Positions 2,683 through 61,475 of a stretch of DNA of 64,000 bases are shown piece after piece. The stretch is from Candidatus Uhrbacteria bacterium (GTDB lineage: Bacteria; Patescibacteriota; Patescibacteriia; 2-12-FULL-60-25). Position 1 is the stretch's first letter; every line of letters begins with the position of its first letter. The stretch is from contig CAIXDN010000041.1 of NCBI GenBank assembly GCA_903918235.1, positions 22 through 64,021 of the forward strand, in the 5' to 3' direction. The translations under genes and the position numbers were made by a program. The notes beneath the pieces were generated by a model, which worked only from the letters and a program-made list of their open reading frames with translations, had not been told where the DNA came from and ran no database searches.

Positions 2683-3915
2683 CTACTCGTAGCGGAGGGC
2701 CTCGATCGGTGAGAGCTTGGAAGCGCGACGGGCAGGATTATAGCCAAAAATAATACCGATGATTGCTGATACGGAGAAGGCGAGGAATATCGAGCTGCCT
2801 GATAAAATAAATGTCCAGCCAGTTTGGAACTGATTGAGAATCTGGATTGTTAGCCAGGACAGTACGACTCCGGTGATAATTCCAATGATTCCGCCAATGG
2901 AGGTGACGGCGATTGCCTCGGCAAGGAATTGGCCCATGACATCGGCACTTTTTGCTCCGAGCGCTTTACGTAACCCAATCTCCGAAGTGCGTTCTGTTAC
3001 AGTAACGTACATAATATTCATGATTCCGATACCGCCGACCACGAGCGAGATTGCTGCGATCGAACCAAGCAAAATAGAGAGCACTTGCCCGATCGTGCCC
3101 GCATTTTTTTGTGCGTCATCTTGCGTTGCTGTTTTAAAATCATCCTTTGCTAAATCGCCTTGCGGATTATCAAGCTTGTGCAAATCACGAAGGAGGAATC
3201 TTACTTCTTCTTTTGCTTGATTTGGCGTTATGTCTTTTGGGATGAGGCTGATAAAATTGAGATGCTCTTTATTGTACTGATCCATCGCCGTTGTTGCAGG
3301 GATGTAAATAAGATCATCGAGCTTTGTAAAAAATCGCGTTCCTCCTTTTGCTAGGACACCGATCACGCGAAAGTTTTGTCGTTTGATCTTTATCATTTTT
3401 CCAACCGGTGAGTCATCGCCATAGAGCTGTTTCGCAATATTGTTTCCTATTACGGCAACTTTTGCATGACTATCAAGATCATCCGTAAACAAAAACCTCC
3501 CCTGCTCTATCGTTGATGAAAAAACCTTGATCTCATCTGGAGCAGAACCCCAGACGGAAACGTTCATATTCTCTGCACCGTATGTTGCTACTGCCGTGCT
3601 TAATACCGTCGTTGTAATTGAGCTAACCCATGGTTGTCGCTTTAGCTCCGTGTAATCTTTATAGGTCAACGTTAATTTTGTTAGCGGGTTTGGTCCACCT
3701 CCTCTTTGTGCACCACTACCGTTTGTAATAATGACGACGTCAGAACCAAACGATGCAACATTTGCTAATAGATAACGTTCCGCAGCTTTACCGATTGATA
3801 GCATCAGGATTACGGAAGCGATTCCAATAACAATTCCGAGCATCGTTAACACGGCTCGCGCTTTATTGCGTAAGAGGCTTTTTACGGAAATAGAAATAAG
3901 GTCCTGAATTTTCAT
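2683..3915 (-). CDS. MacB/FtsX-family ABC transporter permease (copy 2)
   Basis: 410 aa with an N-terminal TM (RAVLTMLGIVIGIASVI), a large extracytoplasmic domain and a C-terminal FtsX 3-TM bundle (MNIMYVTVTERTSEIGLRKALGA). Paralogous to the adjacent ORF. Confidence 0.85.
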   Translation of the reverse strand: MKIQDLISISVKSLLRNKARAVLTMLGIVIGIASVILMLSIGKAAERYLLANVASFGSDVVIITNGSGAQRGGGPNPLTKLTLTYKDYTELKRQPWVSSITTTVLSTAVATYGAENMNVSVWGSAPDEIKVFSSTIEQGRFLFTDDLDSHAKVAVIGNNIAKQLYGDDSPVGKMIKIKRQNFRVIGVLAKGGTRFFTKLDDLIYIPATTAMDQYNKEHLNFISLIPKDITPNQAKEEVRFLLRDLHKLDNPQGDLAKDDFKTATQDDAQKNAGTIGQVLSILLGSIAAISLVVGGIGIMNIMYVTVTERTSEIGLRKALGAKSADVMGQFLAEAIAVTSIGGIIGIITGVVLSWLTIQILNQFQTGWTFILSGSSIFLAFSVSAIIGIIFGYNPARRASKLSPIEALRYE

Positions 3916-3916
3916 A

Positions 3917-5134
3917 TTATTCTTTGCGTAGCGCCTCTATTGGGCTTAAGCGTGAGGCTTTGCGAGCTGGCGCGTACCCAAAAACGACACCGATCGTTGT
4001 TGAGACAAAGAATCCCAGCGCCATGCCTGTTGTTGAAATAGCGAATGACCAACCACTTTGAAAATTTGAGATAACGATTATCGCAAGCCAAGAAAATGCG
4101 ACGCCACAAAAAACACCAATCAAGCCACCTGTTCCGGTGAGCACGATTGATTCAATTAAAAATTGCGTTAATACATCCTTGCTACGAGCGCCCAGCGCTT
4201 TGCGTAAACCGATTTCTCGTGTCCGCTCGGTTACGGAAACGTACATGATATTCATGATGCCGATTCCACCGACCAGGAGTGAGATCGCTGCAATCGCTGA
4301 GAGCAGCATTCCAAGAATATCCGTAATCTGGGTTGCTGTTTTTACCAACTCCTCTTGGGACATGGCATTAAAATCATCCTCTGCGCCCAAATCGATATTA
4401 TGTCGTGAACGTAATACATCCTGAATATTACGAATCCCCTCCGTGACGGATGCAAAATTTGTTTTTATGATCACTGCTTGAACGTACTTTTTGTTATAAA
4501 TATCCATCGCTGCCGTAACCGGTATATAAATATTTCGATCAACGTTATCCATTCCTCTTGTACCTGTTTGCTCCATAACGCCTATGACACGAAAATTTTG
4601 TCGGTTGATTTTAACGGTTTTTCCTACCGAATCATCATCTCCAAAAACATCTTTTGCTATCTCGCTTCCAAGGACAGTAACCCGGGAACGCGCGTCTACA
4701 TCTTCTTGTGACACGAAGACTCCTTTTGCCGTTTTGATGTTATAGAATTTTATTTCATCTGGCATGGTTCCTGATACTTTTCCATCACGCTCGAGGCCAT
4801 TTGCTACGAGCTTATCTGTCTGTTCGATACTTGCTACGACCTGACTACTCCAAGTCTTTTGTTGGATGGCGCGAGCGTCTGCATAGGTTAAGGATTCTTC
4901 TGAAAAAGCTGCGGTAAATGCTCCTTGCGTCGGTGGTCCATTTTGGACGATAATCAAACCCGTACCAAATGAATTTACCGTGTTAACGATGTAACGCTGA
5001 GCTGCTTCTGCGATCGATAAAACAAGGATCACTGATGTGATACCGATTACAATACCGAGCATCGTTAGTGCCGTGCGTCCTTTATTACGTCCGAGACTAT
5101 CGAGTGCAGATTTTAGCAGGTCGCGGATGTGCAT
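3917..5134 (-). CDS. MacB/FtsX-family ABC transporter permease (copy 1)
   Basis: 405 aa with the same architecture (MNIMYVSVTERTREIGLRKALGA). There is a 1-nt gap to the next permease. Confidence 0.85.
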   Translation of the reverse strand: MHIRDLLKSALDSLGRNKGRTALTMLGIVIGITSVILVLSIAEAAQRYIVNTVNSFGTGLIIVQNGPPTQGAFTAAFSEESLTYADARAIQQKTWSSQVVASIEQTDKLVANGLERDGKVSGTMPDEIKFYNIKTAKGVFVSQEDVDARSRVTVLGSEIAKDVFGDDDSVGKTVKINRQNFRVIGVMEQTGTRGMDNVDRNIYIPVTAAMDIYNKKYVQAVIIKTNFASVTEGIRNIQDVLRSRHNIDLGAEDDFNAMSQEELVKTATQITDILGMLLSAIAAISLLVGGIGIMNIMYVSVTERTREIGLRKALGARSKDVLTQFLIESIVLTGTGGLIGVFCGVAFSWLAIIVISNFQSGWSFAISTTGMALGFFVSTTIGVVFGYAPARKASRLSPIEALRKE

Positions 5135-5138
5135 GAGA

Positions 5139-5876
5139 TTATTTTTTTAACTCCGTTGATCCGAGCTGGTGACGATCGCCATTTGTCCGACGATCTCCAA
5201 CGAGGAGACCATCGCGCAAGGTAATGATGCGCTCGGCGTAGTCAGCGGTATCGGTCTCGTGCGTGACGAGAATAATCGTGTGTCCCTTTTTTAGGTTCAG
5301 CTCCAACAAGGTATCCATGACGGCTTGGCCATTTTTTGAGTCGAGGTTTCCCGTTGGTTCATCGGCAAAGATCACGGAAGGCTTACGCACGAGGGCGCGC
5401 GCGATTGCGACACGTTGACGCTCACCGCCGGATAGCTGGTTTGAAAGGTTATTTACACGATGACGCAATCCGACAATATCAATTGCCTCCATTGCCATGG
5501 CATCGCGCTCGCCAAGAGGGACGTCCGAGTATAAGAGTGGAAGCTTTACATTATCGAGGACGGATGTTTTTGGAAGGAGGTTGAAGGATTGAAAAATAAA
5601 TCCCACCTTTTCTCCGCGCAATGTCGCAAGCTGATCATCTGTAAATCTTGAGACATCGCGTCCTTCAAAAAAATATTTCCCGCCCGTGTGCACATCTAAG
5701 AATCCAAGAATCTGCATCATGGTTGATTTTCCGGAACCAGATGGACCCATGATTGCCACAAACTCGCCTTGCATGATGTCAAAGCTCACGCCATGCAATA
5801 CAGGTGTCGCAACTCCGTCGTTGAAGTACGATTTTTTGAGGTCTTCTATGCGAATTACGGGTTCAATTTTGGACAT
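5139..5876 (-). CDS. ABC transporter ATP-binding protein (MacB/LolD-type)
   Basis: Walker A GPSGSGKST, signature LSGGERQRVAIARAL, Walker B VIFADEPTGNLD. Confidence 0.9.
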   Translation of the reverse strand: MSKIEPVIRIEDLKKSYFNDGVATPVLHGVSFDIMQGEFVAIMGPSGSGKSTMMQILGFLDVHTGGKYFFEGRDVSRFTDDQLATLRGEKVGFIFQSFNLLPKTSVLDNVKLPLLYSDVPLGERDAMAMEAIDIVGLRHRVNNLSNQLSGGERQRVAIARALVRKPSVIFADEPTGNLDSKNGQAVMDTLLELNLKKGHTIILVTHETDTADYAERIITLRDGLLVGDRRTNGDRHQLGSTELKK

Positions 5877-5885
5877 ATCGCCCTT

Positions 5886-7757
5886 TTAATTTCCTAATTT
5901 TGCGTCTGCTGTTAGTTTTCCGTATTCATCTGCCGTGACTTCACTTACGATCACGATCTGCTTATCGCTTAAGCCACTTACAACCTCGGCGCGACCTTCA
6001 TCGCCACGGAGACCGAGCTCAATATCCGCATCTTTTACAATACCGTTTTCAATGGTACGGACATATCGTTTACCGTTAAGTTCACGGATGGAGCGCGTTG
6101 GAATAACAAATGCATTTTCACGATTTCCTGTTTTCACGATCAAGTTTGCTGTCATTCCAGGTTTGATATCGCGTCCAGCAGCGTCAATCGTCGCATACAC
6201 TTTGTAGTAGATTGCATCGGAAACTTTTGTTTGATCCGGATTTTCTGAGATAACGGTGCCATTGAATTTTACGCTATCGCCAAAAGCATCGAGCGTAATC
6301 TCTATCGATTGACCAGGAAGAACTTTTACAATATCGGCTTCTGGTACAAGCGCTTCCACGGAATATCCCTCGGTTGAAACCATTTTTACGGCTGTTACGT
6401 TTGCGGTTACTTGTTCTCCGATACTTGGAATAATGTCCGTTACAACCCCATCAACTGGTGCGATGATTTGTACGTCGGCAAGGCGTTCTTGTGCTTGCGT
6501 GTATGCCGTTTGTGCATCGAGAAGCTGGGCTCGGAGACCAGCGACATCAACGGAGCGCGGTGGGGCTTGGCGCAAGTCGAGTGTTGCTTGCTGAATCGCG
6601 AGATTTGTTTCTGCTGTTTTTACTTTAATCACGAGATTCTGTTGAGCGATATCAAAGTTCGCCTTGGCGGTGTCATAGGCGATCTGCAAAGAATCTTTTG
6701 ATGACGTTTGAGTGATTCCTGAGGAACGAGCTGTTTCAATGTAGCTAGTGATGCTTGTTAGGTTTGAGCTAATGCTCGAGCGATCTCCATCAATGCTCGC
6801 TTTCTTTGCAGAAAGAGAGGCGTCGCTCAAATTAATACTTGTAATAGAACCTGCGAGTACTTTTTGAACTTCATCGAGATATTGCTGTGTTTTACGTAGT
6901 GCGTCTTGAGCCTGCTCTCCAATCTGAAGCACTGTTTGATTAGGCGTTAACGATGAGAGATTCCTTACAGAAGCATCAACGGCATTTACTGCATTTTTTG
7001 CTATTGGGTATGACTGCTTTGCACGGTCGAGAGAATCTCTTGCGTAAATGCCAAGAATCCCCTCATATAAATCATTTGCTGATGTATTATCAACGCCGAT
7101 TTCTGCATCGCCATCAATCAAGCCGGAGTGCATCGGTCCCATCACACCCTGGAGCGCGGAGCGAAGATTGGCGTAGGCTGCGGAAACGCTTTGGTCTGAT
7201 GTAGCGCCGCTGTTTTCAAAATCACTCTTTGCTTTAGCCAAAGCTAGTTCTGCGATGCGTAATTCATTCTGAACATTCTGACGTGTCGTGTTTAGATCTG
7301 CGGTTGCTTGATCAACCTGAGCCTGAGCGATCGCAACGGTTTCTTTTGTTTCACCAGCTAGACGTGCATCAAGATTTGCCTGCGCGATCGCAAGTGTTGC
7401 ACGAGCATGCTCAGAAGCAAAATGAAGATCTCGATTCTCTAGCTGAGCAATCACATCTCCGCGCTTTACAATCGAACCAACTTTTTGACTAATACTTTCA
7501 AATGGCGCTGTGCTGGAAAAGGCGAGGTTTAAACGAGCATCTGGCTTAATTTCACCAGTTACCTCTACGGTTTGGACGACATTCCCCTTTTCTACCTGAC
7601 GTGTTTCATAAAATGGGCCGGCATTTGTGTTGCGACCAAAGAAATACCAGCCACCAAAAGCGAGGACAATCGCGATTATCCAAAACCATTTGCTCTTGAG
7701 AAAAGCGAATCGGCTTTTTCTTGGGGCTTCAAACTGTTCTTGCGTGTTCTCGGGCAT
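5886..7757 (-). CDS. HlyD/efflux periplasmic adaptor (membrane fusion) family protein with a long coiled coil
   Basis: 623 aa with an N-terminal TM, a lipoyl-like motif (GEIKP...VKRGDVIAQLE), a long Ala/Gln-rich coiled coil and a C-terminal beta-barrel (GMTANLIV). First gene of the ABC operon. Confidence 0.8.
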   Translation of the reverse strand: MPENTQEQFEAPRKSRFAFLKSKWFWIIAIVLAFGGWYFFGRNTNAGPFYETRQVEKGNVVQTVEVTGEIKPDARLNLAFSSTAPFESISQKVGSIVKRGDVIAQLENRDLHFASEHARATLAIAQANLDARLAGETKETVAIAQAQVDQATADLNTTRQNVQNELRIAELALAKAKSDFENSGATSDQSVSAAYANLRSALQGVMGPMHSGLIDGDAEIGVDNTSANDLYEGILGIYARDSLDRAKQSYPIAKNAVNAVDASVRNLSSLTPNQTVLQIGEQAQDALRKTQQYLDEVQKVLAGSITSINLSDASLSAKKASIDGDRSSISSNLTSITSYIETARSSGITQTSSKDSLQIAYDTAKANFDIAQQNLVIKVKTAETNLAIQQATLDLRQAPPRSVDVAGLRAQLLDAQTAYTQAQERLADVQIIAPVDGVVTDIIPSIGEQVTANVTAVKMVSTEGYSVEALVPEADIVKVLPGQSIEITLDAFGDSVKFNGTVISENPDQTKVSDAIYYKVYATIDAAGRDIKPGMTANLIVKTGNRENAFVIPTRSIRELNGKRYVRTIENGIVKDADIELGLRGDEGRAEVVSGLSDKQIVIVSEVTADEYGKLTADAKLGN

Positions 7758-7781
7758 AGATGTTGTTATAATTATATACCT

Positions 7782-8012
7782 TTACTCTCCTAAAGCCGAA
7801 TTCATCTTTTCGTACATCGCCTTCATAAAATCTTTCATTTGGTCAGCCTTAACGAGACATAGAGGACCGTCGCCATGTTGCATCACCACGAGACGTGCTC
7901 CAGCCTCTAGGCCAAGTTTTTCACGAAACTCTTTCGGTATCACGACTTGACCACGCTCTCCGATCACGGTTGAACCAAGCAAATGCTCCTCTGGGTTAAA
8001 GCAATGTTTCAT
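7782..8012 (-). CDS. AbrB/MazE/SpoVT-family DNA-binding protein
   Basis: 76 aa with the swapped-hairpin motif GERGQVVIPKEFREKLGLEAGARLVV. Directly upstream of the efflux operon. Confidence 0.7.
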   Translation of the reverse strand: MKHCFNPEEHLLGSTVIGERGQVVIPKEFREKLGLEAGARLVVMQHGDGPLCLVKADQMKDFMKAMYEKMNSALGE

Positions 8013-8110
8013 AGAGTATGAATGGTATGAATTATAGGAAAGATTTTTTTTGCTGTCAAGCGTACGGCTAGCCTGGACAGAATGCTAAAAATTAGCTATA
8101 CATAGCGCTT

Positions 8111-9169
8111 ATGGAAACCTCTCTCTTTGACTATCCCCTACCTCCGGAGCGGATCGCCCAGAAACCAATGGAACCGCGTGAAGCGGCAAAGCTTTTGGTG
8201 CTTGATCGAAAGACGGGTGCCGTTGAGGACAAACATGTGGGTGATTTGCCTAGCCTTTTGCGCAAGGGCGATCTTTTGGTTTTTAATGATTCGAAAGTGT
8301 TTAAGGCGAGACTCACGGCGGAGATCTATGGAATGCATACACGTGAAGCCGGAAAGAAGGTTGAGATTTTCTTGTTGCGTCCGGAAGGAAGTCTTTGGCT
8401 TGCGCTCGCGAGACCTGGAAAGAAGTTGCACGTAGGTTGTCGTGTGATGTTTGCTGATGGGAGCAAGGCGCGCATCATGGGCAAGCGTGACGATGGAACG
8501 GTTGATATCGATTTTGGTATTCACCCCGATCGCGTTTTTGATCTCGCCGATCAATTTGGCGAAGTACCTGTGCCGCCCTATGTGGAACCGACGGCGGAAA
8601 ATACTTCCGTGTATCAAACAACGTATGCAAAGAACGTTGGATCAGTAGCGGCACCGACGGCGGGGTTTCATTTTACGAATGCGTTACTTGAAACGATTAG
8701 AAATAATGGAATAGAAACAGCGTTTGTTACTTTGCATGTTGGCGTTGGAACATTTCGTCCAATGAAGAGCGAAACGCTTGAGGAACATGATATGCATGAG
8801 GAGTGGGCGCAAGTTCCGGAAGAGACGGCGGTAATGATTCAGAAAGCGAAACAAGAAGGAAGACGCGTGATCGTTGTTGGAACAACGGCAATGCGTGCAT
8901 TGGAAAGTTGGGCAAAGGTTCAAGAGATTAAGCCGGAATTGCTGGGAAAGAATGGTGAATGGAGCGGGTTCACAAATTTGTTCATCACTCCGGGGTTTGA
9001 GTTTAAGGTTGCCGATGGATTGATCACGAATTTTCATTTGCCAAAGTCGACATTGATTGTTCTCGTGTCTTCTTTTGCAGGACGTGAGCAAGTGATGCAT
9101 GCGTATCAACATGCGATTGAGAATGATTATCGATTTTATTCTTTTGGGGATACGATGCTGATTACATAG
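8111..9169 (+). CDS. queA: S-adenosylmethionine:tRNA ribosyltransferase-isomerase
   Basis: 352 aa. N-terminus LFDYPLPPERIAQKPMEPREAAKLLVLDR, plus VPPYV, SVAAPTAGFHFT and GTTAMRALES motifs typical of QueA. Confidence 0.92.
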   Translation: METSLFDYPLPPERIAQKPMEPREAAKLLVLDRKTGAVEDKHVGDLPSLLRKGDLLVFNDSKVFKARLTAEIYGMHTREAGKKVEIFLLRPEGSLWLALARPGKKLHVGCRVMFADGSKARIMGKRDDGTVDIDFGIHPDRVFDLADQFGEVPVPPYVEPTAENTSVYQTTYAKNVGSVAAPTAGFHFTNALLETIRNNGIETAFVTLHVGVGTFRPMKSETLEEHDMHEEWAQVPEETAVMIQKAKQEGRRVIVVGTTAMRALESWAKVQEIKPELLGKNGEWSGFTNLFITPGFEFKVADGLITNFHLPKSTLIVLVSSFAGREQVMHAYQHAIENDYRFYSFGDTMLIT

Positions 9170-9177
9170 AACGAAGA

Positions 9178-9211
9178 ACGCCGTCACTCAGATGAGAGTG
9201 ACGGCGTTTTG
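9178..9211. terminator. Hairpin terminator between the convergent queA and helicase genes
   Basis: GCCGTCACTC-agatga-GAGTGACGGC followed by TTTT; T-rich on the opposite strand as well. Confidence 0.6.
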
Positions 9212-9215
9212 AGAG

Positions 9216-11447
9216 CTACTTCTTTTTGCCAAGGAAGTGGGGCCAGGAGATCCACGAGGAAGCGTAGATCGCGTTTGGATTAGAAGGAAGTTGCGAATCT
9301 TCTTTATAGTGTGCTTGGTATTCACGCTGAGTCTTCACACCCATGCGTTGCACGGCTTCCATCGCTTCCAGGAATGGATAGAAGCTTGCTTTCTGTGTTC
9401 CTGTGCAGAAATGAGACCAAGAGGTCCATGAAGAGGCGTAGATCTTATTCGGCTCACAAGGAAGACGCGAGTCTTCTTTGTAGCGCGCCTTGTATTCTGC
9501 TCCGTTTTTTATACCCATCCGCTGTACAACTTCCATCGCTTCCAGGAATGGATAGAAGCTTGCTTTCTGTGTTCCTGTAAGGAAGTGTGTCCAAGAGATC
9601 CATATGGAAATATAAATCTTATTTGGTTCACAAGGAAGACGCGAGTCTTCTTTGTATCGTGCGCTATATTCAGACACGGACTTTACTCCCAACCGCTGTA
9701 CGACTTCCATCGCTTCGAGGAATGGGTAGAAACCCGCTCTCTGCGTTCCTGTGAGAAAGTGTGGCCAGGTGATCCATGAAGAGGCGTAGATCGCATTTGG
9801 GTTAGACGGAAGGCTAGTGTCTTCTTTGTAGCGCGTCCTGTATTCAGTCACACTCTTCACACCCATCCTCTGCACGACTTCCATCGCTTCGGTGAATGAG
9901 TAGAAGTTTGCTTTCTGTGTTCCTGTGAGAAAGTGGGTCCAGGACATCCATGAGGAGGCATAAGCTCCTTCAGGAGTTGAAGGAAGTCGAGAGTCTTCTT
10001 TGTAGCGCGCCTTGTATTCAGGCTGAGTCTTCACGCTCATTCTTTGCACTGCTTCCATCGCCTCGGTGAATGAGTAGAAATTAGCTTTCTGCGTTCCTGT
10101 GAGAAAGTGAAACAAGGAGATCCATGAAGCAGCGTAAATTTTGCTCGGATCCGAAGGAAGACGAGGGTCTTCTTTGTAGCGTGCCTTATATTCATGCTGC
10201 GACTTCACACCCATCCTCCGCACAACTTCCATCGCTTCGGAGAATGAGTAAAAGTCAACTTCTATGCGTTGCAGGATGTCTCGGAGATCTCGGCTTTCTT
10301 CATCGAGATTGAAGATGATGCTTGAGGCGTTGATGGAGGAGCTGTGACGCTCGCCATATTCACGCTCAAGCGCCTGAACTTCTTCCACGAACGCTGTTGC
10401 GATAGAGATACGATCACAGTTTCCGACGAAGTCGAGAACGGTGACGTGGCTCTTGGTCGCAGTCTTGCGAAGCCCGCGTCCGAGTTGCTGGAGATAGATC
10501 GTTCTCGACTCCGTTGAACGGAGGAAAACGATCAGTTCCGTATCGGGGACGTCGATGCCTTCGTTGAACATATCCTTCACGAGCAGATACTTGATGCGAC
10601 CCCGGCGGAATCCCTCCAGGTTCGCGTCCAGCGTCTTACGATCAAGTCTCGAGTGGTACGGTCGCGCCTTTCGGAGACGCGTTGCCATACCCTCGGCTTG
10701 CTCGATACTCGTGCAGAAGATGATGCCTTGAGCCTTGTAGCTCATGATCTCTTCCGCGATCTCCTCGTCGAGTCGGTGAATGAACACCTCGTCGTTCAGT
10801 TCTCGCAGAGTGATGCGTTCGCCGGACATGACGCGACGCTTGAGTTCGTTGATGGCGTCGCGTGCGGCCGTTCCTACGGTCATCAACTTGTAGTCGATGT
10901 CCGAGAGATACCTGCGTGCGACGGCTTCTTGGAGCGTGAGCGTTGCGGTTGGCTCGCCAAACAAATCACCAATGTCGAGTCCATCTTCACGGTCGGGAGT
11001 TGCCGTCATTCCGAGCAAGTATTTTGGTTGGAAATACTCGACGGTCGGACGGAAGGTCTCGGCTTGTGAGTGGTGACTTTCATCGACGACGACCATGTCA
11101 AAGGCGTTGGACGTGAAGAGATTGCGGTGCCCGTGCATCGTCTGGAACGATGCGAATAGGAACTCCGTGACTCTTGGATCCGCCTTTTCCTCGCCAGTAA
11201 ACATACCCATGGTACGCGAACCGTTGAACACGGCTCGATACGCTTCCATGGCCTGACGAAGGATATCGTTGTTATGGCAGAGGAAGAGCAGTCGCTTGCG
11301 CGAGCTGAGCAACTTCTGAACGATGAGCGCACTCGTGATGGTCTTTCCGGTACCGGTAGCCATCACCATGAGTGCTCTTCCGTCGCGCTCGAGTGCGCCG
11401 GAGACCGTCTCGATGATCGGAACCTGATAGCCGTGCGGATTGATCAC
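9216..11447 (-). CDS. SF2 helicase (ResIII/DEAD-like core) with six C-terminal 58-aa tandem repeats
   Basis: Motif I MATGTGKT, motif II VVDESHH, motif III GMTATP, and a C-terminal helicase lobe (QQLGRGLR). These are followed by 6 copies of F-Y-x-F-x-E-A-M-E-x-V-Q-R-M-G-V-K...Y-K-E-D-x-x-L-P-x-x-P...Y-A-S-S-W-I-S-W-x-H-F-L-T-G-T. Confidence 0.85.
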   Translation of the reverse strand: MINPHGYQVPIIETVSGALERDGRALMVMATGTGKTITSALIVQKLLSSRKRLLFLCHNNDILRQAMEAYRAVFNGSRTMGMFTGEEKADPRVTEFLFASFQTMHGHRNLFTSNAFDMVVVDESHHSQAETFRPTVEYFQPKYLLGMTATPDREDGLDIGDLFGEPTATLTLQEAVARRYLSDIDYKLMTVGTAARDAINELKRRVMSGERITLRELNDEVFIHRLDEEIAEEIMSYKAQGIIFCTSIEQAEGMATRLRKARPYHSRLDRKTLDANLEGFRRGRIKYLLVKDMFNEGIDVPDTELIVFLRSTESRTIYLQQLGRGLRKTATKSHVTVLDFVGNCDRISIATAFVEEVQALEREYGERHSSSINASSIIFNLDEESRDLRDILQRIEVDFYSFSEAMEVVRRMGVKSQHEYKARYKEDPRLPSDPSKIYAASWISLFHFLTGTQKANFYSFTEAMEAVQRMSVKTQPEYKARYKEDSRLPSTPEGAYASSWMSWTHFLTGTQKANFYSFTEAMEVVQRMGVKSVTEYRTRYKEDTSLPSNPNAIYASSWITWPHFLTGTQRAGFYPFLEAMEVVQRLGVKSVSEYSARYKEDSRLPCEPNKIYISIWISWTHFLTGTQKASFYPFLEAMEVVQRMGIKNGAEYKARYKEDSRLPCEPNKIYASSWTSWSHFCTGTQKASFYPFLEAMEAVQRMGVKTQREYQAHYKEDSQLPSNPNAIYASSWISWPHFLGKKK
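9219..10253 (-). repeat. In-frame tandem coding repeat, 6 x 174 bp
   Basis: 174-bp periodicity. For example, a 49-bp stretch CTTCCATCGCTTCCAGGAATGGATAGAAGCTTGCTTTCTGTGTTCCTGT is identical at 9356-9404 and 9530-9578. Confidence 0.9.
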
Positions 11448-52663: not shown

Positions 52664-54142
52664 TTAGTAGACTCTCATCATGTAGCGTTCGATGGGGGCG
52701 TATTCATCTGTGAGGATTGGCATGTCGGTTGTGATGTCTTTTTGCCAACGCTGTTTTAGATATTGCGCAATCTCTTCATTCGCTGGTACCTGCTCCATTG
52801 GTTCTGCCGATTTTGCTGCGACGATCATGAGATTTTGTTTTTTTGTTGCATCGTCCTCATTCACCCAAAATGCATAGACATTTGGAAACACTGATTTATA
52901 TGTCGCGTATTCTGCCTGAAAAAATGGACTTGCATCACCCTCAAATGCTCCAATAAGATTTACAAAAACAACGCCATCCTCCTGTAATCTATCTGACATT
53001 TTTTGTACGGCTTCTCGTGTTGTGAGCTGATAAGGCGGAGTTAGTGACGTAAACGCATCTACGAAGATAGCATCATACATTGTTGATGGAGCCTTATTTA
53101 AAAAGGTACGACCATCCTCATGAAAAATATGAAGCCGCGGGTCATCGGTCAGAAAAAAATATTTTCTCGCTAACGCGGTCAAGGCCGGGTCAAACTCTAC
53201 GACATCAAGATCTGCTTCTGGGAACTTTTTTAGAAATGCCTTGGGGTAGGAATATGCAGCACCGCCAATCATGAGTGCGTGTTTTGGCGGTGAGACAAAT
53301 TGCTCTACCATGTTGTACATTTTTAAATAATCAAACACGAGCTCTGTCACGTCTCCATCAAGAAGCATTCCCGATTGAAGCCCATATTTATCCATTCGTA
53401 ATATTCTTACGAGTCGGTCTTTGTATTGGATTGGATATATCTGTATGCGCTGATAGCTTGTATCGACGTCAATCATGCCTTTTGACTCTGCTTTTGCTTG
53501 AGAAAAGAAGCCGAGAGCCGCTATCACACCAATCACGACAAGCATGATCAATTTTATGCGTATCTTGTCTCTCTGAAGGATGATTGTTGCTAGGATAAGC
53601 GTTCCGGCTAATACATATAAAATATTCGTTGAACCAAAAAACGCGATCAGCAAAAATCCCGCTAAAAATGTACCGACAATACTGCCAAGCGTTGAAAGCG
53701 CATAAAGCGTTCCAATCGTCGTGCCTGCGTGTTCTGTATCGTACATTTTAAGCTTTGCGGCGTAGGGAGAGATCATTCCAAGGATCGCGCTTGCTGGAGC
53801 AAATAACAGAAGCGTTGATGTGACCGTTGCTATATAAAGATTCTTTATCACCTTGCTTATGACATTCAGTATCGGCTCTTTTAGGATGGCTGTTGCGACA
53901 ATACATATCGCAGCAAGCAGAATAATCTGTGCTAGCTCTTCTCGCTGTGCGTTTTGATCTGCTCTTCTTCCGCCCCAATAATATCCAGCACTTAGACTTC
54001 CAAGAATCACTCCAATTAAACTTGTCCAAACGACAATCGACGTTCCAACATAAGGAGCAAGAATACGCGAGCCTACGAGCTCAAGAATCATGACGACCGC
54101 TCCACAGATAAAGACGGTCCATTCAAGCGCGTATTTTTTCAT
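52664..54142 (-). CDS. Fused multi-TM / spermidine-synthase-like (aminopropyltransferase-fold) protein
   Basis: About 200 aa of TM helices, then a class I MTase-like domain (ALMIGGAAYSYPKAFL...DLDVVEFDPALT...YDAIFVDAFTS). Confidence 0.7.
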   Translation of the reverse strand: MKKYALEWTVFICGAVVMILELVGSRILAPYVGTSIVVWTSLIGVILGSLSAGYYWGGRRADQNAQREELAQIILLAAICIVATAILKEPILNVISKVIKNLYIATVTSTLLLFAPASAILGMISPYAAKLKMYDTEHAGTTIGTLYALSTLGSIVGTFLAGFLLIAFFGSTNILYVLAGTLILATIILQRDKIRIKLIMLVVIGVIAALGFFSQAKAESKGMIDVDTSYQRIQIYPIQYKDRLVRILRMDKYGLQSGMLLDGDVTELVFDYLKMYNMVEQFVSPPKHALMIGGAAYSYPKAFLKKFPEADLDVVEFDPALTALARKYFFLTDDPRLHIFHEDGRTFLNKAPSTMYDAIFVDAFTSLTPPYQLTTREAVQKMSDRLQEDGVVFVNLIGAFEGDASPFFQAEYATYKSVFPNVYAFWVNEDDATKKQNLMIVAAKSAEPMEQVPANEEIAQYLKQRWQKDITTDMPILTDEYAPIERYMMRVY

Positions 54143-55382: not shown

Positions 55383-56828
55383 TTAATTGGTCCATGGAAA
55401 AGGTTTGGTAAAATTCTGAATTTCTTTTGCGTACTTTCGTAACCAGATTAAAACATGCGCGGTCGCTTGCACATCTTCACGATTGTATTGCGTGATAGCA
55501 TCCAAGACCTTGCGATCGCCCGCGTTGAGCCATCGTTCATACGCAAGTATGGATTCTCCCCCGCCCTGTACGTCGCCTTCCCAGGCAAAGCCAAGAAATT
55601 TTGCGATCGCTTTTAAGCTATAGAAATGTAAGGGAAAAACGACTTGCTCACGAACAATCTCTTTTACATCAACCATGGAATTCCGGAAGCGGATGAGAGA
55701 TGCGCTGTCGTCGCCGCCATAGCGTTTTGCCAATACGGAGAGACGGGTGACTTCATAGTTTGCATAATGATAGACCGTATAACGCTCAGGTAATGTTTCA
55801 ATCCATGCGAGAAAATCTTTCCAGAGATGCTCCTCTTCTTTTGCATTTTCCGCGACAAATGCCTTGTATCCATCTGGTAGCCAGAATCCAAAGAGGTAGT
55901 CGAGATCCTCTGGTGGGTAGCTTTCAATATCAAAATGTATTTCTAATCCCCTAGTTGGATCCATGAAAGGTTTCCGAATCATCACGGATCCACGCACCAA
56001 TGATTCTGCTTGTCGTCGCACGGCTTCAAGGGCATTTCTTGTGAGACCAACGATCTTTCCTTCGAGCTCATCGATGTCCATGATGGCGGCATCATCAATG
56101 GTTAGCACGCCAAGCGAGCGTAATGCTTTTAGTTTTTTTACATCGACATTAAAGAGGAGCGCAATGTCACGACGTGATTCAGCAAGTCGCAAGCAAGCAG
56201 CGCCCCATGGCGATGTGTCTTTGCAACTTTTGCGATAGACGGGCGCAGGCATTTCACCGGAGCGGATACGCTCAAGTTGCTCCACGATTGATGCAAACTC
56301 GCTTTGGAATGCAGCTGCGTCGAATGAGAGGCGCTCGCCATCTCCGTTAATAATTGATGGGTGTGAGGGAAAAAATCCTTGCGCACGCTCGACGAGAATT
56401 GCATAAAATGAGAGCTGGCACATGTGCTCTTTTTTTAGTTCGTGTGCGCGCTTCACATCGAGAGGAACGTAATACCAGTCACCAAAGAGACTTTTTCCTG
56501 GTTGTCGTTCAAGGAGATCTGGCCGACCGATCCAATCACCATCACGCAACCAACCTTGGTAGATTACCGCAGCACCAGCGCGCATTAACTCGAGTGTACG
56601 CGTGACACCTTCATCAACATTCGTGATCTCACTTACATCATCAGAAGTGCCAAATTGCTTGGAAACGATATCTCGCTCATGAGCAAGACCATCGCTCATC
56701 CGTTGTTCTTCCTCTTTTGTCAGAGGACGACGATCTGCGAGATCGCCAAAACGCTCCCAATATGGCCAATGAGGACATTGGAAAAAGCGGTAAAAATCGC
56801 TTCCTGTTAGTGGCTCTGTCGGCTTCAT
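55383..56828 (-). CDS. TM0106-family RecB-like (PD-(D/E)xK plus RNase-H-like) putative nuclease
   Basis: From the ATG at 56828: MKPTEPLTGSDFYRFFQCPHWPYWERF. PD-(D/E)xK core GRPDLLER...YYVPLDVKRAHELKKEHMCQLSFYA. C-terminal exonuclease-like IHFDIESYPPEDLDYLFGFW. Confidence 0.7.
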   Translation of the reverse strand: MKPTEPLTGSDFYRFFQCPHWPYWERFGDLADRRPLTKEEEQRMSDGLAHERDIVSKQFGTSDDVSEITNVDEGVTRTLELMRAGAAVIYQGWLRDGDWIGRPDLLERQPGKSLFGDWYYVPLDVKRAHELKKEHMCQLSFYAILVERAQGFFPSHPSIINGDGERLSFDAAAFQSEFASIVEQLERIRSGEMPAPVYRKSCKDTSPWGAACLRLAESRRDIALLFNVDVKKLKALRSLGVLTIDDAAIMDIDELEGKIVGLTRNALEAVRRQAESLVRGSVMIRKPFMDPTRGLEIHFDIESYPPEDLDYLFGFWLPDGYKAFVAENAKEEEHLWKDFLAWIETLPERYTVYHYANYEVTRLSVLAKRYGGDDSASLIRFRNSMVDVKEIVREQVVFPLHFYSLKAIAKFLGFAWEGDVQGGGESILAYERWLNAGDRKVLDAITQYNREDVQATAHVLIWLRKYAKEIQNFTKPFPWTN

Positions 56829-56836
56829 GTGCGATA

Positions 56837-57127
56837 TCACACCTGATTTTTCCTTTCTTGTATAGCCACCGCGAGAATGCGCATCATCATATATTGGCCA
56901 ATCGTGAATCCTGAAAGGAATGCAAACAAATGCCAAAGCCACCAATACCTTCGCAAGAAGATATCGCTTATTATTGCTGGAACTTGCATGATAACCACCC
57001 AGAGAATAACCCCAATCCAATACACACGACGAGAACCGGGAGGCCATGCCTCTGTGAGAATTGGGTTCACTGGCTTGGTGATCTGGACCTTGGTTGATGG
57101 TGGCGATGCAAACATTCTCTTAAACAT
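56837..57127 (-). CDS. Small membrane protein, possibly SecE-like
   Basis: Position after tRNA-Thr and rpmG. ...TEAWPPGSRRVYWIGVILWVVIMQVPAIISDIF loosely resembles the SecE K-V-S-W-P-x-x-K-E plus TM pattern, but a second TM follows and no nusG follows. The track start at 57157 lies inside the rpmG terminator. Confidence 0.35.
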   Translation of the reverse strand: MFKRMFASPPSTKVQITKPVNPILTEAWPPGSRRVYWIGVILWVVIMQVPAIISDIFLRRYWWLWHLFAFLSGFTIGQYMMMRILAVAIQERKNQV

Positions 57128-57140
57128 ACTCGGAACTATA

Positions 57141-57179
57141 AAACACAAACGCCCCAATGGATATGGGGCGTTTGTGTTT
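57141..57179. terminator. Strong hairpin terminator after rpmG
   Basis: Perfect 15-bp stem AAACACAAACGCCCC-9 nt-GGGGCGTTTGTGTTT, T-rich on the minus strand afterwards. Confidence 0.75.
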
Positions 57180-57362: not shown

Positions 57363-57438
57363 TGGAGCCGCCTCGCGGATTTGAACCGCGGACCTTCACT
57401 TTACAAAAGTGTTGCTCTACCAGCTGAGCTAAGGCGGC
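57363..57438 (-). tRNA. tRNA-Thr (anticodon UGU), CCA encoded
   Basis: Reverse complement GCCGCCT-TA-GCTC-AGCTGGTA-GAGC-A-ACACT-TTTGTAA-AGTGA-AGGTC-CGCGG-TTCAAAT-CCGCG-AGGCGGC-T-CCA folds as a cloverleaf. Confidence 0.88.
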
Positions 57439-57589
57439 GCGGATACAGAGCGGAACGAACGGGCAGGATCATGCCATATTGTTTAAAAAAAGACAATACC
57501 CACAAGGATTATAGTCATAATCATCAATGAATACGTACTTTTTTAGAAGAGCCCCTGCGCTACCGAGATGGTAGCACAGGGGCAGAGAG

Positions 57590-58138
57590 TCATCCTGTGA
57601 TGACGAGAAACTGGTGGCTATGCGCCAGGGAAATGCCGAGTGGAATAAATCCATCTCGAGCCAGATCAAGAAACGGCTTGAAACGCACCATTTCATCTCT
57701 ACATCCGAGGTGAGACAAAATCGTGACGTAGAACAGGAGAATGCGGACATTCTCCATCAACTGACTCCTGACCGTGATGGTCGAAGGCTCAGAGAAGAGC
57801 TCTTCCCATACGCCGAATGCCATCGAGTCTGGGTAGAGAGAGTTCATCTGAGCGCGCATGAGGTTGCCATCGATGGCAAAGCTCTTCACGAGCTCATAGC
57901 AGTGCTCGCGGACGAGCGTGTCGATCCCCTTCCACGCTGAGTGATTCAAACTTCCTACGCTCTCACGATCGATCAGAGCCACACTCGTGGCTCCTGAGAA
58001 CGCACAAACTTCTTGGCAGCGCTTCATCAGGTCGTTCGTATTTTCCGGACGACACAGTTGAGGTGACCAAGAATGCCAGCAAGCGATCTCCTCGGGGATC
58101 GCCGGTAGACTCTGATTACCGACAAGTTGTTGTTGCAC
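57590..58138 (-). CDS. Hypothetical protein (182 aa)
   Basis: GTG start at 58138 with AGGAGG 8 nt upstream. No family recognised. The C-terminus resembles that of ORF 17088-17777. Confidence 0.55.
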   Translation of the reverse strand: MQQQLVGNQSLPAIPEEIACWHSWSPQLCRPENTNDLMKRCQEVCAFSGATSVALIDRESVGSLNHSAWKGIDTLVREHCYELVKSFAIDGNLMRAQMNSLYPDSMAFGVWEELFSEPSTITVRSQLMENVRILLFYVTILSHLGCRDEMVRFKPFLDLARDGFIPLGISLAHSHQFLVITG

Positions 58139-58259
58139 GGACTATTCCTCCTTGGAACGCAATGGTCCTGCCCTATCAAAAGAGCAGGACTACATAGTTG
58201 TACAATCTTTTAAACTTGTCCAGGGTATTGGAAATACGCGAGCAATGCTTATTCCTATT

Positions 58260-59738
58260 TTAGTTCTCCCGAATCTGACTCTCCTCATGCTGGTCCTTTG
58301 TCAATGCTCCAATAGGGAATAACTCTGTGGAAGTCAGGCCTGGCCGGCCATGATCTGCGATATATTTTAGTCGTGCGATGAATTTTCCCATTTGCACTCT
58401 TGCTTCTCGTCTATCCGGAAACATCATTTTATAGACTTGCTCGATTACTTCCTTCTGAGGACCGCCGCTCATAATGTCTTTATAAATTTTCCCCATCTTT
58501 TCTTGGTCCTTTGGACCTAATTTAAGCTCTGGCCTCTGACCCAAAATTTCAAGCGGAATACTTCTTAGCTGACGCATCCCTTCTGTTGGATCGCTTTTTC
58601 GTTTTATACGTTTTCCATCTTCTATCGCATATTCTTCTCGACCATGTTTTATTACTAGGTCACGAGCACGCCCGGAGTGTAGCCCATTATCAATACCCGT
58701 GACTTTTCCACTCACTGGGTCGATAAACATGTTTTCAAAATGACGATCCTGGGAACCCATGAGCCAATCAAGTGTTGCTAAACGTGCCATGGATTCCTGC
58801 GGCTCTGGTAATCGACCATCTTGCTCAAGTTTTTTTCGCTCTTCCTCGGTGTACTTAATACCTATCGTATCAGACCATTCCGACGCGTTATTTTTATTCA
58901 TTGCTTCAAATTCCTTCGCAGACAGATAGCGTGCCGGATTCTCTTCACTTGTTGACGAGACGCCCTCTTGAACTGAAGCGATGTCTTCTACAATCTTTGT
59001 ACCTCCATGCCCATCTGCAACAAGACGATCAATTTTTCTCGCGGCTGTTGGAGGGATGACATCAAACTCGCAAAGCATGTCGATACGGCTCATTGCGACT
59101 TCACGGGCGATAAATCCTTCTGGAGGAATATCGATGCGAGGCCCAAAGCGGTCTACCTCTAATGAAGTTTTGTACGCTTCAAATTCTTCCGGCGGAACTC
59201 CATAAGCCTTTGCCATCTGCACCGCATATTCTTGTTTAAACGAGTCCGATGACCACTGTTGCGCTATGGCACGTTGCCCCGGATCAACATCCACGCCCTC
59301 ATTACGAAAGTATTGATCGTCTGACACGGAATAAATAAGTGGCGTACCATCTTTATCAAAGTATGCTTCTCCTGATTTCTGCTTCATAAAACCCACAATT
59401 TCACCTCCACCATCACGTTCAATTTTCATCCTCATAATCGCGTTTACGCCAGCGTCTCCTAGTCGTTTTCGTTCTTTTTGCTTACCCATCGCTAATGACT
59501 CTAGCGCTTCAATCTGGCTTACTCGATTAAATACATTTCCTGGATCGACATCGATTTTTGTAAAAATCGCCGTATCTACAGCACGAATACGATCGAACAT
59601 CGTCTTGCGACTTCTTCGCTCTTCTGACTCACGCGACGGAGATGCTTCTATCGAGATTTCTTGTGAACCGTCAACTACAGGCAGTTGTTCTGTCTTTGGT
59701 CGTACATTTTCTTTAGGTAGTTGATCAAAAGGTGCCAT
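58260..59738 (-). CDS. PI3/PI4-kinase-like (atypical kinase fold) protein
   Basis: Catalytic-loop and metal-binding pattern LDWLMGSQDRHFENMFIDPVSGKVTGIDNGLHSG (compare G-x-x-DRH-x-x-N...IDFG). The upstream GGGEIVGFMKQKSGEAY and REVAMSRIDMLCEFDVIPPTA resemble type II PI4K / SCO1664-like segments. Confidence 0.55.
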   Translation of the reverse strand: MAPFDQLPKENVRPKTEQLPVVDGSQEISIEASPSRESEERRSRKTMFDRIRAVDTAIFTKIDVDPGNVFNRVSQIEALESLAMGKQKERKRLGDAGVNAIMRMKIERDGGGEIVGFMKQKSGEAYFDKDGTPLIYSVSDDQYFRNEGVDVDPGQRAIAQQWSSDSFKQEYAVQMAKAYGVPPEEFEAYKTSLEVDRFGPRIDIPPEGFIAREVAMSRIDMLCEFDVIPPTAARKIDRLVADGHGGTKIVEDIASVQEGVSSTSEENPARYLSAKEFEAMNKNNASEWSDTIGIKYTEEERKKLEQDGRLPEPQESMARLATLDWLMGSQDRHFENMFIDPVSGKVTGIDNGLHSGRARDLVIKHGREEYAIEDGKRIKRKSDPTEGMRQLRSIPLEILGQRPELKLGPKDQEKMGKIYKDIMSGGPQKEVIEQVYKMMFPDRREARVQMGKFIARLKYIADHGRPGLTSTELFPIGALTKDQHEESQIREN

Positions 59739-59741
59739 AGG

Positions 59742-60038
59742 TTATTCATCCTGGGGCTCGGGCGTTGTTCCGCAGTACCACTGACGGCCAGAGTATCGCA
59801 TAAGCAATTTCAAAAATCGTTCGCCCTCTTTTGGTAGAACACGAGCATAGCCAGTTTCATCTTTCACGCCATGCGCCTCAAGCATCTCTCTTAGATTTTC
59901 TGGAAGCGCACTCAAATCAGCGCTTCCATCATCTTTGATCGTCATTGGGGCTGGCTCAGTCATCAAATTTCCCTGACCGTCGAGCACTCGAATATGTACA
60001 ATCAAGAATGGATTCTTTGGTTTTGGCATGCGTTCCAT
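59742..60038 (-). CDS. Hypothetical protein (95-98 aa)
   Basis: 3-nt gap to the kinase-like gene, so probably the same operon. Alternative start at 60029. No family recognised. Confidence 0.45.
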   Translation of the reverse strand: MERMPKPKNPFLIVHIRVLDGQGNLMTEPAPMTIKDDGSADLSALPENLREMLEAHGVKDETGYARVLPKEGERFLKLLMRYSGRQWYCGTTPEPQDE

Positions 60039-60095
60039 CTTTCTATTTTACGCCTATCCTTTCCTCTCCGCCACTCCTCTAGTAGGATCACGTCC

Positions 60096-61280
60096 ATGTC
60101 GGCATTTTCTTTATCACCGGATCAGGGCCAAGCGTTGGAGCGTCTTCTTGGTTGGATCAAGAAACCACAAGGTCCTGCGATTACACTTGGAGGCTATGCT
60201 GGAACCGGTAAAACGACCGTGGCGGCCGCTTTGCGTGCTGTTTTGGCACATAACAATGCTGGACATAAAATCGCCTTCTGTGCGTTTACAGGGAAGGCTA
60301 GCCAGGTGCTGCGCAATACGCTTGAGATGCATGAAGCGCTGAGTCCGGAAGATACTTGTGGGACGATTCACTCGCTTCTCTACTCTCCGATGGTTGATAA
60401 GCAAGGCAATATCACAGGCTGGCAACGTAGCAAGGAGGTTGAAGCGGATTTGATCGTTGTTGATGAAGCGTCGATGGTGAACCAGCGTTTGTGGTTTGAT
60501 CTTCTTGGTGCGGGGCGTCCGGTGATCGCAATTGGTGATCATGGACAGTTACCACCGATTGAAGGGAGTTTTAATTTAATGGAAAAGCCAGATCTAACCC
60601 TTGAGCGCGTACATCGACAAGCGGAAGGAAATCCGATTATTCAGCTCGCACATGAAGTGCGTCTTACGGGAAAGATTGAAGCTGGTTCCTATGGAAAACA
60701 TGTGCACAAATATTCTTGGGCAACGGATGAGCCTTCGGATATTCAGAGTGCGATTGATGAGCTCATGGATGAATCGCCTGATGATCGGCTTTTGCTTTGT
60801 GGTCGCAACAAGACGCGTATTGAACTCAATCGAACGATACGGAAAAAGCTTGGACGTGAATCCGATGAACCGGAGGCTGGTGACCGGGTCGTATGTCTCA
60901 AGAATGAGTACAATCAAAATCAACCAATTTACAATGGAATGACAGGATATGTTGAATCCTGTGACCCGGATGGTGAGCATTGGTATCAGATGAGTATTGA
61001 TTTTGCTGATGATGGTCGTCGTTTCGATGGACGTGTTTCCAAGCATGGGTTTATGTCGGAGAAAGGTGGAGAAACGGTTGCAGGATTAGGTCCAAAAGAA
61101 ATTGGAAGTCGTTTTGATTTTGGGTATGCGCTTACGGTACACAAAGCACAGGGTTCGCAAGCGAGACGCGTTGTGCTTTTTGAAGAACGCTTTTTAAAAA
61201 TGGACGATGAACAATGGAGACGCTGGCTGTATACGGCGGTCACGAGAGCGCGGGAGGAATTGATTGTAATTGGAGAATAA
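60096..61280 (+). CDS. Dda/RecD-like SF1B DNA helicase
   Basis: From the ATG at 60096: Walker A GGYAGTGKTT, Walker B LIVVDEASMV, IGDHGQLPPI, RQAEGNPII, SH3-like insert (GDRVVCLKNEYNQ...YNGMTG), YALTVHKAQGSQ and YTAVTRARE. Confidence 0.85.
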   Translation: MSAFSLSPDQGQALERLLGWIKKPQGPAITLGGYAGTGKTTVAAALRAVLAHNNAGHKIAFCAFTGKASQVLRNTLEMHEALSPEDTCGTIHSLLYSPMVDKQGNITGWQRSKEVEADLIVVDEASMVNQRLWFDLLGAGRPVIAIGDHGQLPPIEGSFNLMEKPDLTLERVHRQAEGNPIIQLAHEVRLTGKIEAGSYGKHVHKYSWATDEPSDIQSAIDELMDESPDDRLLLCGRNKTRIELNRTIRKKLGRESDEPEAGDRVVCLKNEYNQNQPIYNGMTGYVESCDPDGEHWYQMSIDFADDGRRFDGRVSKHGFMSEKGGETVAGLGPKEIGSRFDFGYALTVHKAQGSQARRVVLFEERFLKMDDEQWRRWLYTAVTRAREELIVIGE

Positions 61281-61312
61281 AAACACTCCGACAATTGCCG
61301 GAGTGTTTTTGT
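61281..61312. terminator. Hairpin terminator after the helicase gene
   Basis: AAAAACACTCCG-acaattgc-CGGAGTGTTTTT. Confidence 0.7.
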
Positions 61313-61398
61313 GGTGGGTGGGGAAGGATTCGAACCTTCGAAGGCGCAAGGCCAGCAGATTTACAGTCTGCCCCCGTTGACCGCTTGGGTACCCACCC
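61313..61398 (-). tRNA. tRNA-Tyr (anticodon GUA), long variable arm, CCA encoded
   Basis: Reverse complement GGGTGGG-TA-CCCAAGCGGTCAACGGGG-GCAGA-CTGTAAA-TCTGC-TGGCCTTGCGCCTTC-GAAGG-TTCGAAT-CCTTC-CCCACCC-A-CCA. Confidence 0.88.
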
Positions 61399-61399
61399 A

Positions 61400-61475
61400 T
61401 GGAGCCGTAGACCGGAATTGAACCGGTGACCTTTTCCTTACCATGGAAATGCTCTACCAGCTGAGCTACTACGGC
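61400..61475 (-). tRNA. tRNA-Thr (anticodon GGU), CCA encoded
   Basis: Reverse complement GCCGTAG-TA-GCTC-AGCTGGTA-GAGC-A-TTTCC-ATGGTAA-GGAAA-AGGTC-ACCGG-TTCAATT-CCGGT-CTACGGC-T-CCA. Separated from tRNA-Tyr by 1 nt. Confidence 0.9.

Follow-up and report, generated by a model that had tools for sequence, protein, structure and literature searches.

The genomes of Patescibacteria are very small, and most of the genes retained in them are considered to matter, yet a large share of these genes is unannotated. The present analysis deals with an interval bounded by tRNA genes in a 64,000-nucleotide stretch of DNA (hereafter referred to as the window) from a Candidatus Uhrbacteria bacterium (GenBank assembly GCA_903918235.1, contig CAIXDN010000041.1, positions 22 to 64,021), and in particular with two adjacent genes in it that code for a small acidic protein of 98 amino acids (aa) and for a 492-aa enzyme of the PI3/PI4-kinase fold.

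The interval extends over 3.9 kilobases (kb) from tRNA-Tyr(GUA) (61312-61398), which together with tRNA-Thr(GGU) (61400-61475) forms the far-side boundary, to tRNA-Thr(UGU) (anticodon tgt, 57363-57438), which forms the boundary on the side of rpmG. All three tRNA genes were identified by ARAGORN on the minus strand, and rpmG (ribosomal protein L33; 57194-57349, minus strand; PF00471, E 1.1e-14) anchors one flank of the interval and is conserved. Four open reading frames (ORFs) fill the interval in the window. Those on the minus strand are the 98-aa acidic orphan (59742-60038), the 492-aa kinase-fold enzyme (58260-59738), which matches PF00454, and a 182-aa orphan with a GTG start codon (57590-58138). 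The fourth, on the plus strand, codes for an SF1B Dda/RecD2-like helicase of 394 aa from the ATG at 60096 (60096-61280) and diverges from the 98-aa gene across an intergenic spacer of 57 base pairs (bp) (60039-60095). The stop codon of the 98-aa gene lies 3 nucleotides (nt) from the start of the kinase gene, and because of this short gap the two genes are probably translationally coupled. A preliminary description of the window, made from the sequence alone, had reported the minus-strand order of tRNA-Thr(GGU), tRNA-Tyr, four genes, tRNA-Thr(UGU) and rpmG, the 3-nt gap, the narrow divergent spacer and an AGGAGG site before the 182-aa gene; the ARAGORN and ORF calls agree on the order, the coordinates agree on the gap and the spacing, and AGGAGG is present 7-8 nt before the GTG.

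The kinase-fold protein and its upstream partner gene

Motif, Pfam match and fold all assign the 492-aa protein to the PI3/PI4-kinase superfamily. Its own match to PF00454 is borderline (27.1 bits for a cutoff of 27.1, residues 314-353), and the same model is matched by 46 of 61 family members (best E 7e-10), with weak matches to Fam20C in eight of the 61, to HipA_C in four and to HipA_2 in two. K119, Q257, D331, N336, D350 and S393 (window numbering) are invariant in the alignment of the 61 sequences, and E213, P229, T231, R234 and G352 are nearly so, E213 being invariant in alignments of 12 and 26 sequences. Judged by fold position, K119 (in an F/V-K motif) would be the ATP-binding Lys and E213 its likely alphaC salt-bridge partner, D331 and N336 would belong to the DRHxxN catalytic loop, and D350 of the IDNG motif would correspond to a DFG-like Mg-binding motif. 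The catalytic loop (LMGSQDRHFEN, residues 326-336), which is of the GxxDRHxxN type, aligns to those of mTOR, TOR2 and DNA-PKcs, and a minority sub-clade of the family carries DGI instead of DRH. When the PDB was searched with the profile of the kinase family, the catalytic loop matched mTOR, phosphatidylinositol 3-kinase-related kinases (PIKKs) and PI4K (E 4e-4); the matches in the viral library were to giant-virus and phage PI3/4-kinases. The protein is predicted to be an active ATP-dependent phosphotransferase.

The AlphaFold2 (AF2) model calculated from the 61-sequence alignment has a predicted local distance difference test (pLDDT) value of 90.7 and a predicted template modelling (pTM) score of 0.89; it replaced a poor first model from six sequences (pLDDT 53). 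A Foldseek search of the PDB with the model gave 68 matches at E<=1e-3, headed by PI4KII alpha/beta (E 1.2e-8 to 1e-6, probability 1.0), which are followed, among the best 50 of the 68, by ATM, VPS34, ATR, PI4KIIIbeta and the Golgi casein kinase Fam20. The kinase-like fold proposed in the preliminary description, for which structure prediction and comparison had been suggested as a check, is therefore upheld by motifs, Pfam, AF2 and Foldseek together.

The likeness to type II PI4K (best structural match 8a5x, E 1.2e-8; target-normalised template modelling (TM) score of 0.50 for 4hnd) includes the ATP-binding Lys, the GxxDRHxxN loop and a DxG Mg-binding motif. However, sequence identity is 12-16%, the host is a bacterium, there is no CCPCC motif or membrane anchor, and the small partner gene, obligate here, is absent from eukaryotic PI4KII. 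The only other bacterial PI3/4K-like model that was matched is the SCO1664 family (TIGR03843), an actinobacterial group of PI3/4-kinase-like hypothetical proteins, and the match is weak (E 7e-4, residues 200-353); since it reaches 18.9 bits against a cutoff of 172, the window kinase is not a member of that family, the proteins of which are about 250 aa long as compared with 492 aa for the window kinase. Likewise, it is a member neither of the type II PI4Ks proper nor of the HipA family. The window kinase is acidic, has a single Cys (position 223) and reaches at most 0.77 in a 19-residue Kyte-Doolittle window; no transmembrane segment was detected in the kinase, the small partner or the 182-aa protein.

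Close homologues of the kinase are few, and all are 'hypothetical proteins' from Candidatus Uhrbacteria, Magasanikbacteria and metagenome bins; the family members with a taxon name are assigned to Uhrbacteria, Magasanikbacteria and the 'Patescibacteria group'. A HMMER scan of 1.84 billion cluster representatives (50% identity) recovered 332 proteins at E<=1e-3, of which 95 reach E<=1e-10 and 36 reach E<=1e-30; the length of most family members is 430-600 aa. A scan of GTDB genomes with narrow patterns derived from the close alignment returned the already known locus only.

The contigs fetched for kinase homologues, labelled L001 onward and referred to here as relatives, were examined for the genes that surround the kinase. 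Of the 18 independent kinase loci that include upstream sequence, 17 have a homologous partner gene of 86-121 aa directly before the kinase, the distance from the partner stop to the kinase start being -35 to +5 nt and often amounting to a 4-nt ATGA overlap. The sole kinase without a partner (L022, 27-548 and 1240-2508) is truncated at its 5' end and lies behind an IS110-like transposase fragment on a GC-rich contig. The hidden Markov model (HMM) of the small protein recovers the partners across the loci with E-values of 1e-43 to 9e-6, and the identities of the small protein and the kinase to those of the window run in parallel (71/69, 62/60, 53/51, 42/40, 36/39 and 32/35%). Gly23, Gly38, Gly57, Pro69 and Phe75 are invariant in the alignment of 11 small proteins (A5), and the partner is acidic in most loci. 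The 98-aa protein itself has no match in Pfam, NCBIfam, PHROGs, PADLOC or PDB and carries no helix-turn-helix (HTH), and a search of 172 retrieved proteins with the small-protein HMM revealed no fusion of the kinase to the small domain.

The surroundings of the pair differ among the relatives. In the Magasanikbacteria-like L002, L014 and L020 and in L005, the pair adjoins tRNA-Thr(UGU)-rpmG without the helicase or the 182-aa gene, while L013, L015, L016, L021, L023 and L028 have unrelated neighbourhoods, each with an ORF of 86-121 aa immediately upstream of the kinase. The helicase is missing beside the pair in L002, L005, L013, L014, L015, L016, L020 and L028. On the 1.1-Mb contig L014 (GCA_963852945.1), two tandem pairs (2793-4831 and 7639-9434) are located 4.8 kb apart, which indicates that the pair has been duplicated as a unit; a 99-aa ORF and the gene of a GGDEF protein lie between them, and the first kinase is a 562-aa paralogue. 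Since distant relatives keep the pair without the helicase, also in unrelated contexts, the functional unit appears to be the two-gene pair and not the four-gene block. The recurrence of kinase, 98-aa gene and helicase as neighbours in other genomes, which the preliminary description had put forward for examination, thus holds for the first two, whereas the helicase adjoins the pair in one syntenic clade only.

On a tailed-phage contig (L025, IMG/VR UViG_3300032053_004601), two PI3_PI4_kinase genes of about 345 aa, in the region 5596-7975, flank a 97-aa ORF, which matches the small-protein HMM weakly (E 0.003), and a prohead protease of family S77 is encoded at 9304-10632. This gene arrangement suggests that phages carry a distant version of the kinase and the small ORF.

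Inheritance of the block and its neighbouring genes

The helicase, the small gene and the kinase are present at the same place and in the same orientation in every Uhrbacteria-like relative recovered (L001, L006, L007, L008, L010 and L018), and the 182-aa gene is additionally present in four of these (L001, L006, L008 and L010). The order in the clade is TIM, a TPR protein, tRNA-Thr(GGU), tRNA-Tyr, variable genes, the helicase on the opposite strand (-), the small gene, the kinase, in some cases a DUF4230 gene, the 182-aa gene, tRNA-Thr(UGU) and rpmG. The tRNA-Thr(UGU) gene also follows the kinase region in L001, L002, L005, L006, L007, L008 and L010, the tRNA-Tyr and tRNA-Thr(GGU) pair is likewise present in L001, L005, L006, L007 and L010, and rpmG (71-94% identity to that of the window) always adjoins tRNA-Thr(UGU). 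From tRNA-Tyr to tRNA-Thr(UGU) the interval varies from 3.9 to 8.9 kb among the relatives, with genes such as MsrB, Gmad2, DUF1801, GIY-YIG, NUDIX, DUF4230 and DnaJ forming a variable cargo that is present in some and absent in others.

Comparison of the protein identities to the window separates the genes of the block. The helicase, with 75-91%, is in the range of TIM (76-88%) and the TPR protein (68-87%) and thus evolves like its housekeeping neighbours; the corresponding value for YibE/F is 76-78%. The kinase (48-71%), the small protein (53-71%) and the 182-aa protein (28-61%) evolve faster than the helicase but in step with each other.

The preliminary description had regarded the 3.9 kb as an accessory island inserted into a conserved tRNA and rpmG neighbourhood. 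Its observations that mobility genes and att-like direct repeats are absent were confirmed: no recombinase or integrase is encoded among the four genes of the interval, no att repeats from a tRNA 3' end were found, and the sole direct repeat of at least 26 nt corresponds to the two whole tRNA-Thr paralogues, which are 74% identical. The insertion itself is contradicted by the relatives, since the same genes, the tRNA frame and the order recur in all those recovered from the clade and the GC content is flat across the region (0.44-0.52 within the block and 0.42-0.53 outside). In these relatives tRNA-Tyr is not directly followed by tRNA-Thr(UGU)-rpmG, as an insertion into a contiguous cluster had led one to expect; the helicase, the small gene and the kinase lie between them, and the core-like conservation of the same genes in relatives, named beforehand as evidence against an island, was largely observed, the 182-aa gene being found in four of them. 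A recent island or mobile element is ruled out by the absence of an integrase and of att repeats, the flat GC content and the syntenic presence in relatives. We rather favour, by a modest degree of confidence, a block that was fixed long ago and has been vertically inherited in the Uhrbacteria-like lineage of Patescibacteria, its core being a coupled module of the kinase and a small protein as its dedicated partner. The case is a caution for genome scanning, as a block of non-housekeeping genes bounded by tRNAs can be ancient and vertically inherited.

The assignment of the helicase to the SF1B Dda/RecD-like class in the preliminary description was well founded, as Pfam (AAA_30, E 9e-23; UvrD_C_2, E 1.5e-17; AAA_19), PHROGs (phrog_325 'Dda-like helicase', E 1.6e-92) and PDB (Deinococcus radiodurans RecD2, 3e1s, E 1.6e-20; T4 Dda, 3upu, E 7e-8) agree. 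Its motifs GTGKT, DEAS, GDHGQ and HKAQG (Walker A, Walker B, III and V/VI) are intact, its length of 394 aa equals that in the relatives, and its match to the RecD-like SH3 domain is weak and falls short of the Pfam cut-off (E 2.7e-4). The match to the RecD2 equivalog TIGR01448 reaches 137 bits against a cutoff of 500 and covers only profile positions 332-689, from which it follows that, unlike RecD2, the protein is devoid of the N-terminal domain; unlike the Dda of phages, it is encoded by a chromosomal gene that is conserved in the clade. The helicase is separate from the widespread module and is a clade-specific neighbour of the pair, with which it may be co-regulated in this clade.

The divergent spacer is kept at 55-71 bp in seven loci, and the spacer alignment of six relatives shows GATCCTACTAGAGGAGT and GGAAAGGAT..TAAAAT to be conserved. 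With the -10-like boxes TAAAAT and TAGGAT placed 7-8 nt from each ATG of the divergent pair, the spacer probably holds back-to-back promoters, and the short distances suggest leaderless or near-leaderless transcripts.

The 182-aa protein has no match in Pfam, NCBIfam, PHROGs, PADLOC or PDB. Its homologues occupy the same position in the four relatives that carry the gene, and none was found in L007, L005, L002 or L014. It is a soluble, fast-evolving and clade-specific downstream addition, and it and the small partner are both orphan families.

Between the helicase stop and tRNA-Tyr, the inverted-repeat search identified a hairpin (61279-61310) with 16-nt arms of 94% complementarity, which is likely to be a terminator or an insulator. 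A second hairpin (57141-57179), with 16-nt arms that are 100% complementary, lies 3' of rpmG. Both are likely terminators, and neither was called by the consensus terminator scan.

Beyond rpmG, the 106-aa protein (56837-57157, minus strand) that had been described as SecE-like has no match to SecE or to any other Pfam family; a long hydrophobic, probably membrane-spanning stretch is visible in it by eye. In L001, L006 and L008 its gene (50-54% identity) is always located directly upstream of a gene for a TM0106-family RecB-like nuclease and travels with that gene and not with rpmG, and this constant adjacency makes the protein look like a partner of the nuclease. For the ORF of the TM0106-family nuclease in the window (55383-57047, minus strand), Met74 (about 56828) is the probable start, and the resulting length of about 481 aa agrees with that in the relatives. 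A membrane spermine-synthase-like gene (52664-54142, minus strand) follows YibE/F in the window, and its counterpart in relatives (L001, 8379-9911), only 25-28% identical, lies between rpmG and the nuclease gene; the difference reflects either a local rearrangement or non-orthologous copies.

Probable role of the pair and alternative explanations

The conserved pairing, the parallel divergence of the two proteins and the predicted fold are best explained by a cytoplasmic kinase that has a partner subunit of its own, an interpretation that we hold to be somewhat better than evenly balanced. The module would be bicistronic and probably translationally coupled, with an acidic protein of about 90-120 aa followed by a soluble PI3/PI4-kinase-fold enzyme of about 450-560 aa. 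The small protein would act as a stoichiometric partner of the kinase, be it a regulatory subunit, an adaptor or a substrate, and the two would form a complex. Since the kinase is cytoplasmic, has no membrane anchors and occurs in organisms that, to our knowledge, do not make inositol lipids, its target is more likely to be a protein than a phosphoinositide. In the Uhrbacteria-like clade, the helicase would share the 57-bp bidirectional control region with the pair.

Several observations weigh against such a role. The resemblance to PI4KII is at the level of the fold only, with TM-scores of 0.35-0.50, and the small protein has neither a recognisable fold nor an invariant Ser, Thr or Tyr in alignment A5. 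For a phylum of this size the family has few members, which argues against a universal housekeeping function. In L006 (7900-10834), frameshifts disrupt both the helicase (at least two) and the kinase (two), whereas the 98-aa gene and the flanking genes over about 14 kb are intact, and the kinase of L007 (6681-8106) is split in two. The broken genes are probably pseudogenes, assembly error being the other explanation, and they imply that some lineages can do without the module, in keeping with an accessory or a toxin-antitoxin function as much as with a regulatory one.

The pair could accordingly be viewed as a type II toxin-antitoxin system of the HipBA or HipST kind, in which the kinase toxin phosphorylates an essential translation factor and arrests growth and the small protein is the antitoxin that binds and inhibits the kinase; we consider this unlikely, although it is the chief rival of the preferred reading. 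The architecture is that of hipBA and hipS-hipT, with a gene for about 100 aa that immediately precedes, and frequently overlaps by 4 nt, that of a kinase of the same broad superfamily. The weak HipA_C and HipA_2 matches among the family members (best E 5e-6), the tandem duplication in L014, the frameshifted copies in L006 and L007, the copy truncated by an insertion sequence (IS) in L022 and the unrelated contexts of the distant members are in line with such a system. Partners that do not bind DNA occur in published Hip families, namely HipS and the HipJ context (PMC8262856).

The direct comparisons, however, do not place the pair among the Hip systems. When the family profile was aligned with E. 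coli HipA by hhalign, only 24 columns were matched, all at the catalytic loop (probability 29%), where LMGSQDRHFEN of the window kinase stands opposite LIGATDGHAKN of HipA, and comparison of the small protein with HipB and with the N-terminal region of HipA gave no match. The window kinase has no HipA_C or HipA_N match in Pfam and has no HipA N-subdomain, and no HipA structure is present among the best 50 of the 68 Foldseek matches. The partner, without an HTH or a match to any Pfam family, shows no likeness to HipB or HipS. The pair is, moreover, fixed beside tRNA-Thr(UGU)-rpmG down to 32-40% protein identity, a syntenic stability that is unusual for mobile toxin-antitoxin loci. Membership in HipBA was rejected, as the comparison with hipBA of E. 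coli MG1655 aligns the catalytic loop only.

A further and rather speculative possibility is that the pair constitutes an undescribed, Patescibacteria-specific two-component switch, being either a new kinase toxin-antitoxin outside the Hip families or a minimal PIKK-like unit of DNA-stress signalling tied to the helicase in the Uhrbacteria-like clade. If the latter were true, the shared 57-bp control region and the joint decay of helicase and kinase in one lineage would be meaningful. A search of the open-access literature on Patescibacteria and the Candidate Phyla Radiation for PI3/4K-like kinases that have a small partner of their own returned nothing relevant.

The closest solved structures being PI4KII alpha/beta, with even the low-confidence first AF2 model giving the same top match, the kinase might be a true lipid kinase comparable to the type II PI4Ks, its substrates being phosphoinositides or other membrane lipids that these epibiotic bacteria scavenge or derive from their hosts, and the small protein might present the lipid or target the enzyme. 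The use of such lipids would accord with the usual picture of Patescibacteria as host-dependent and without complete lipid synthesis. The low TM-scores, the single Cys without a CCPCC palmitoylation motif and the lack of any transmembrane or strongly hydrophobic segment in the kinase tell against this proposal, as do the protein kinases ATM, mTOR and Fam20, whose similarity in sequence and fold is almost as high; in addition, no inositol-lipid gene was noticed in any of the neighbourhoods examined. A lipid kinase is hence regarded as improbable.

Equally poor are the prospects of the four genes as a novel anti-phage defence system at a tRNA-flanked hotspot, in which the helicase would sense or process invading DNA and the kinase and its partner would provide the effector or the signal: the resemblance of the helicase to phage- and defence-associated SF1B helicases (phrog_325 and the PADLOC PDC-M16A and type IV RecD models), the divergent arrangement kept in seven loci, the variable cargo of the interval, the decay of helicase and kinase together in L006 and the distant PI3_PI4-kinase genes on some tailed-phage contigs have to be set against a helicase that is absent beside the pair in eight of the loci and, in the clade, conserved in the manner of a housekeeping gene, without the fast turnover typical of defence genes, and against the lack of a compositional signal in GC. 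The co-occurrence of helicase and kinase in one syntenic clade only, together with the core-gene-like helicase, makes the system unlikely. PADLOC-DB v2 gave no match for the kinase, the small protein or the 182-aa protein and matched the helicase only through the generic SF1B core; a named defence system was accordingly rejected, in keeping with the earlier statement that the combination matches none, while the defence island or decayed mobile element proposed along with it finds no support in these results, in the conservation of the helicase or in the absence of mobility genes.

With the cytoplasmic kinase and its dedicated partner as the preferred reading, two 'hypothetical proteins' become a defined and testable module that recurs in about 100 sequence clusters. 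We know of almost no signalling or growth-control mechanisms in this phylum, and the module, whether its kinase is regulatory or part of a new toxin-antitoxin, would, if confirmed as such, add one and would place a further kind of enzyme beside HipA and the secreted effectors among the bacterial PI3/4K-like enzymes.

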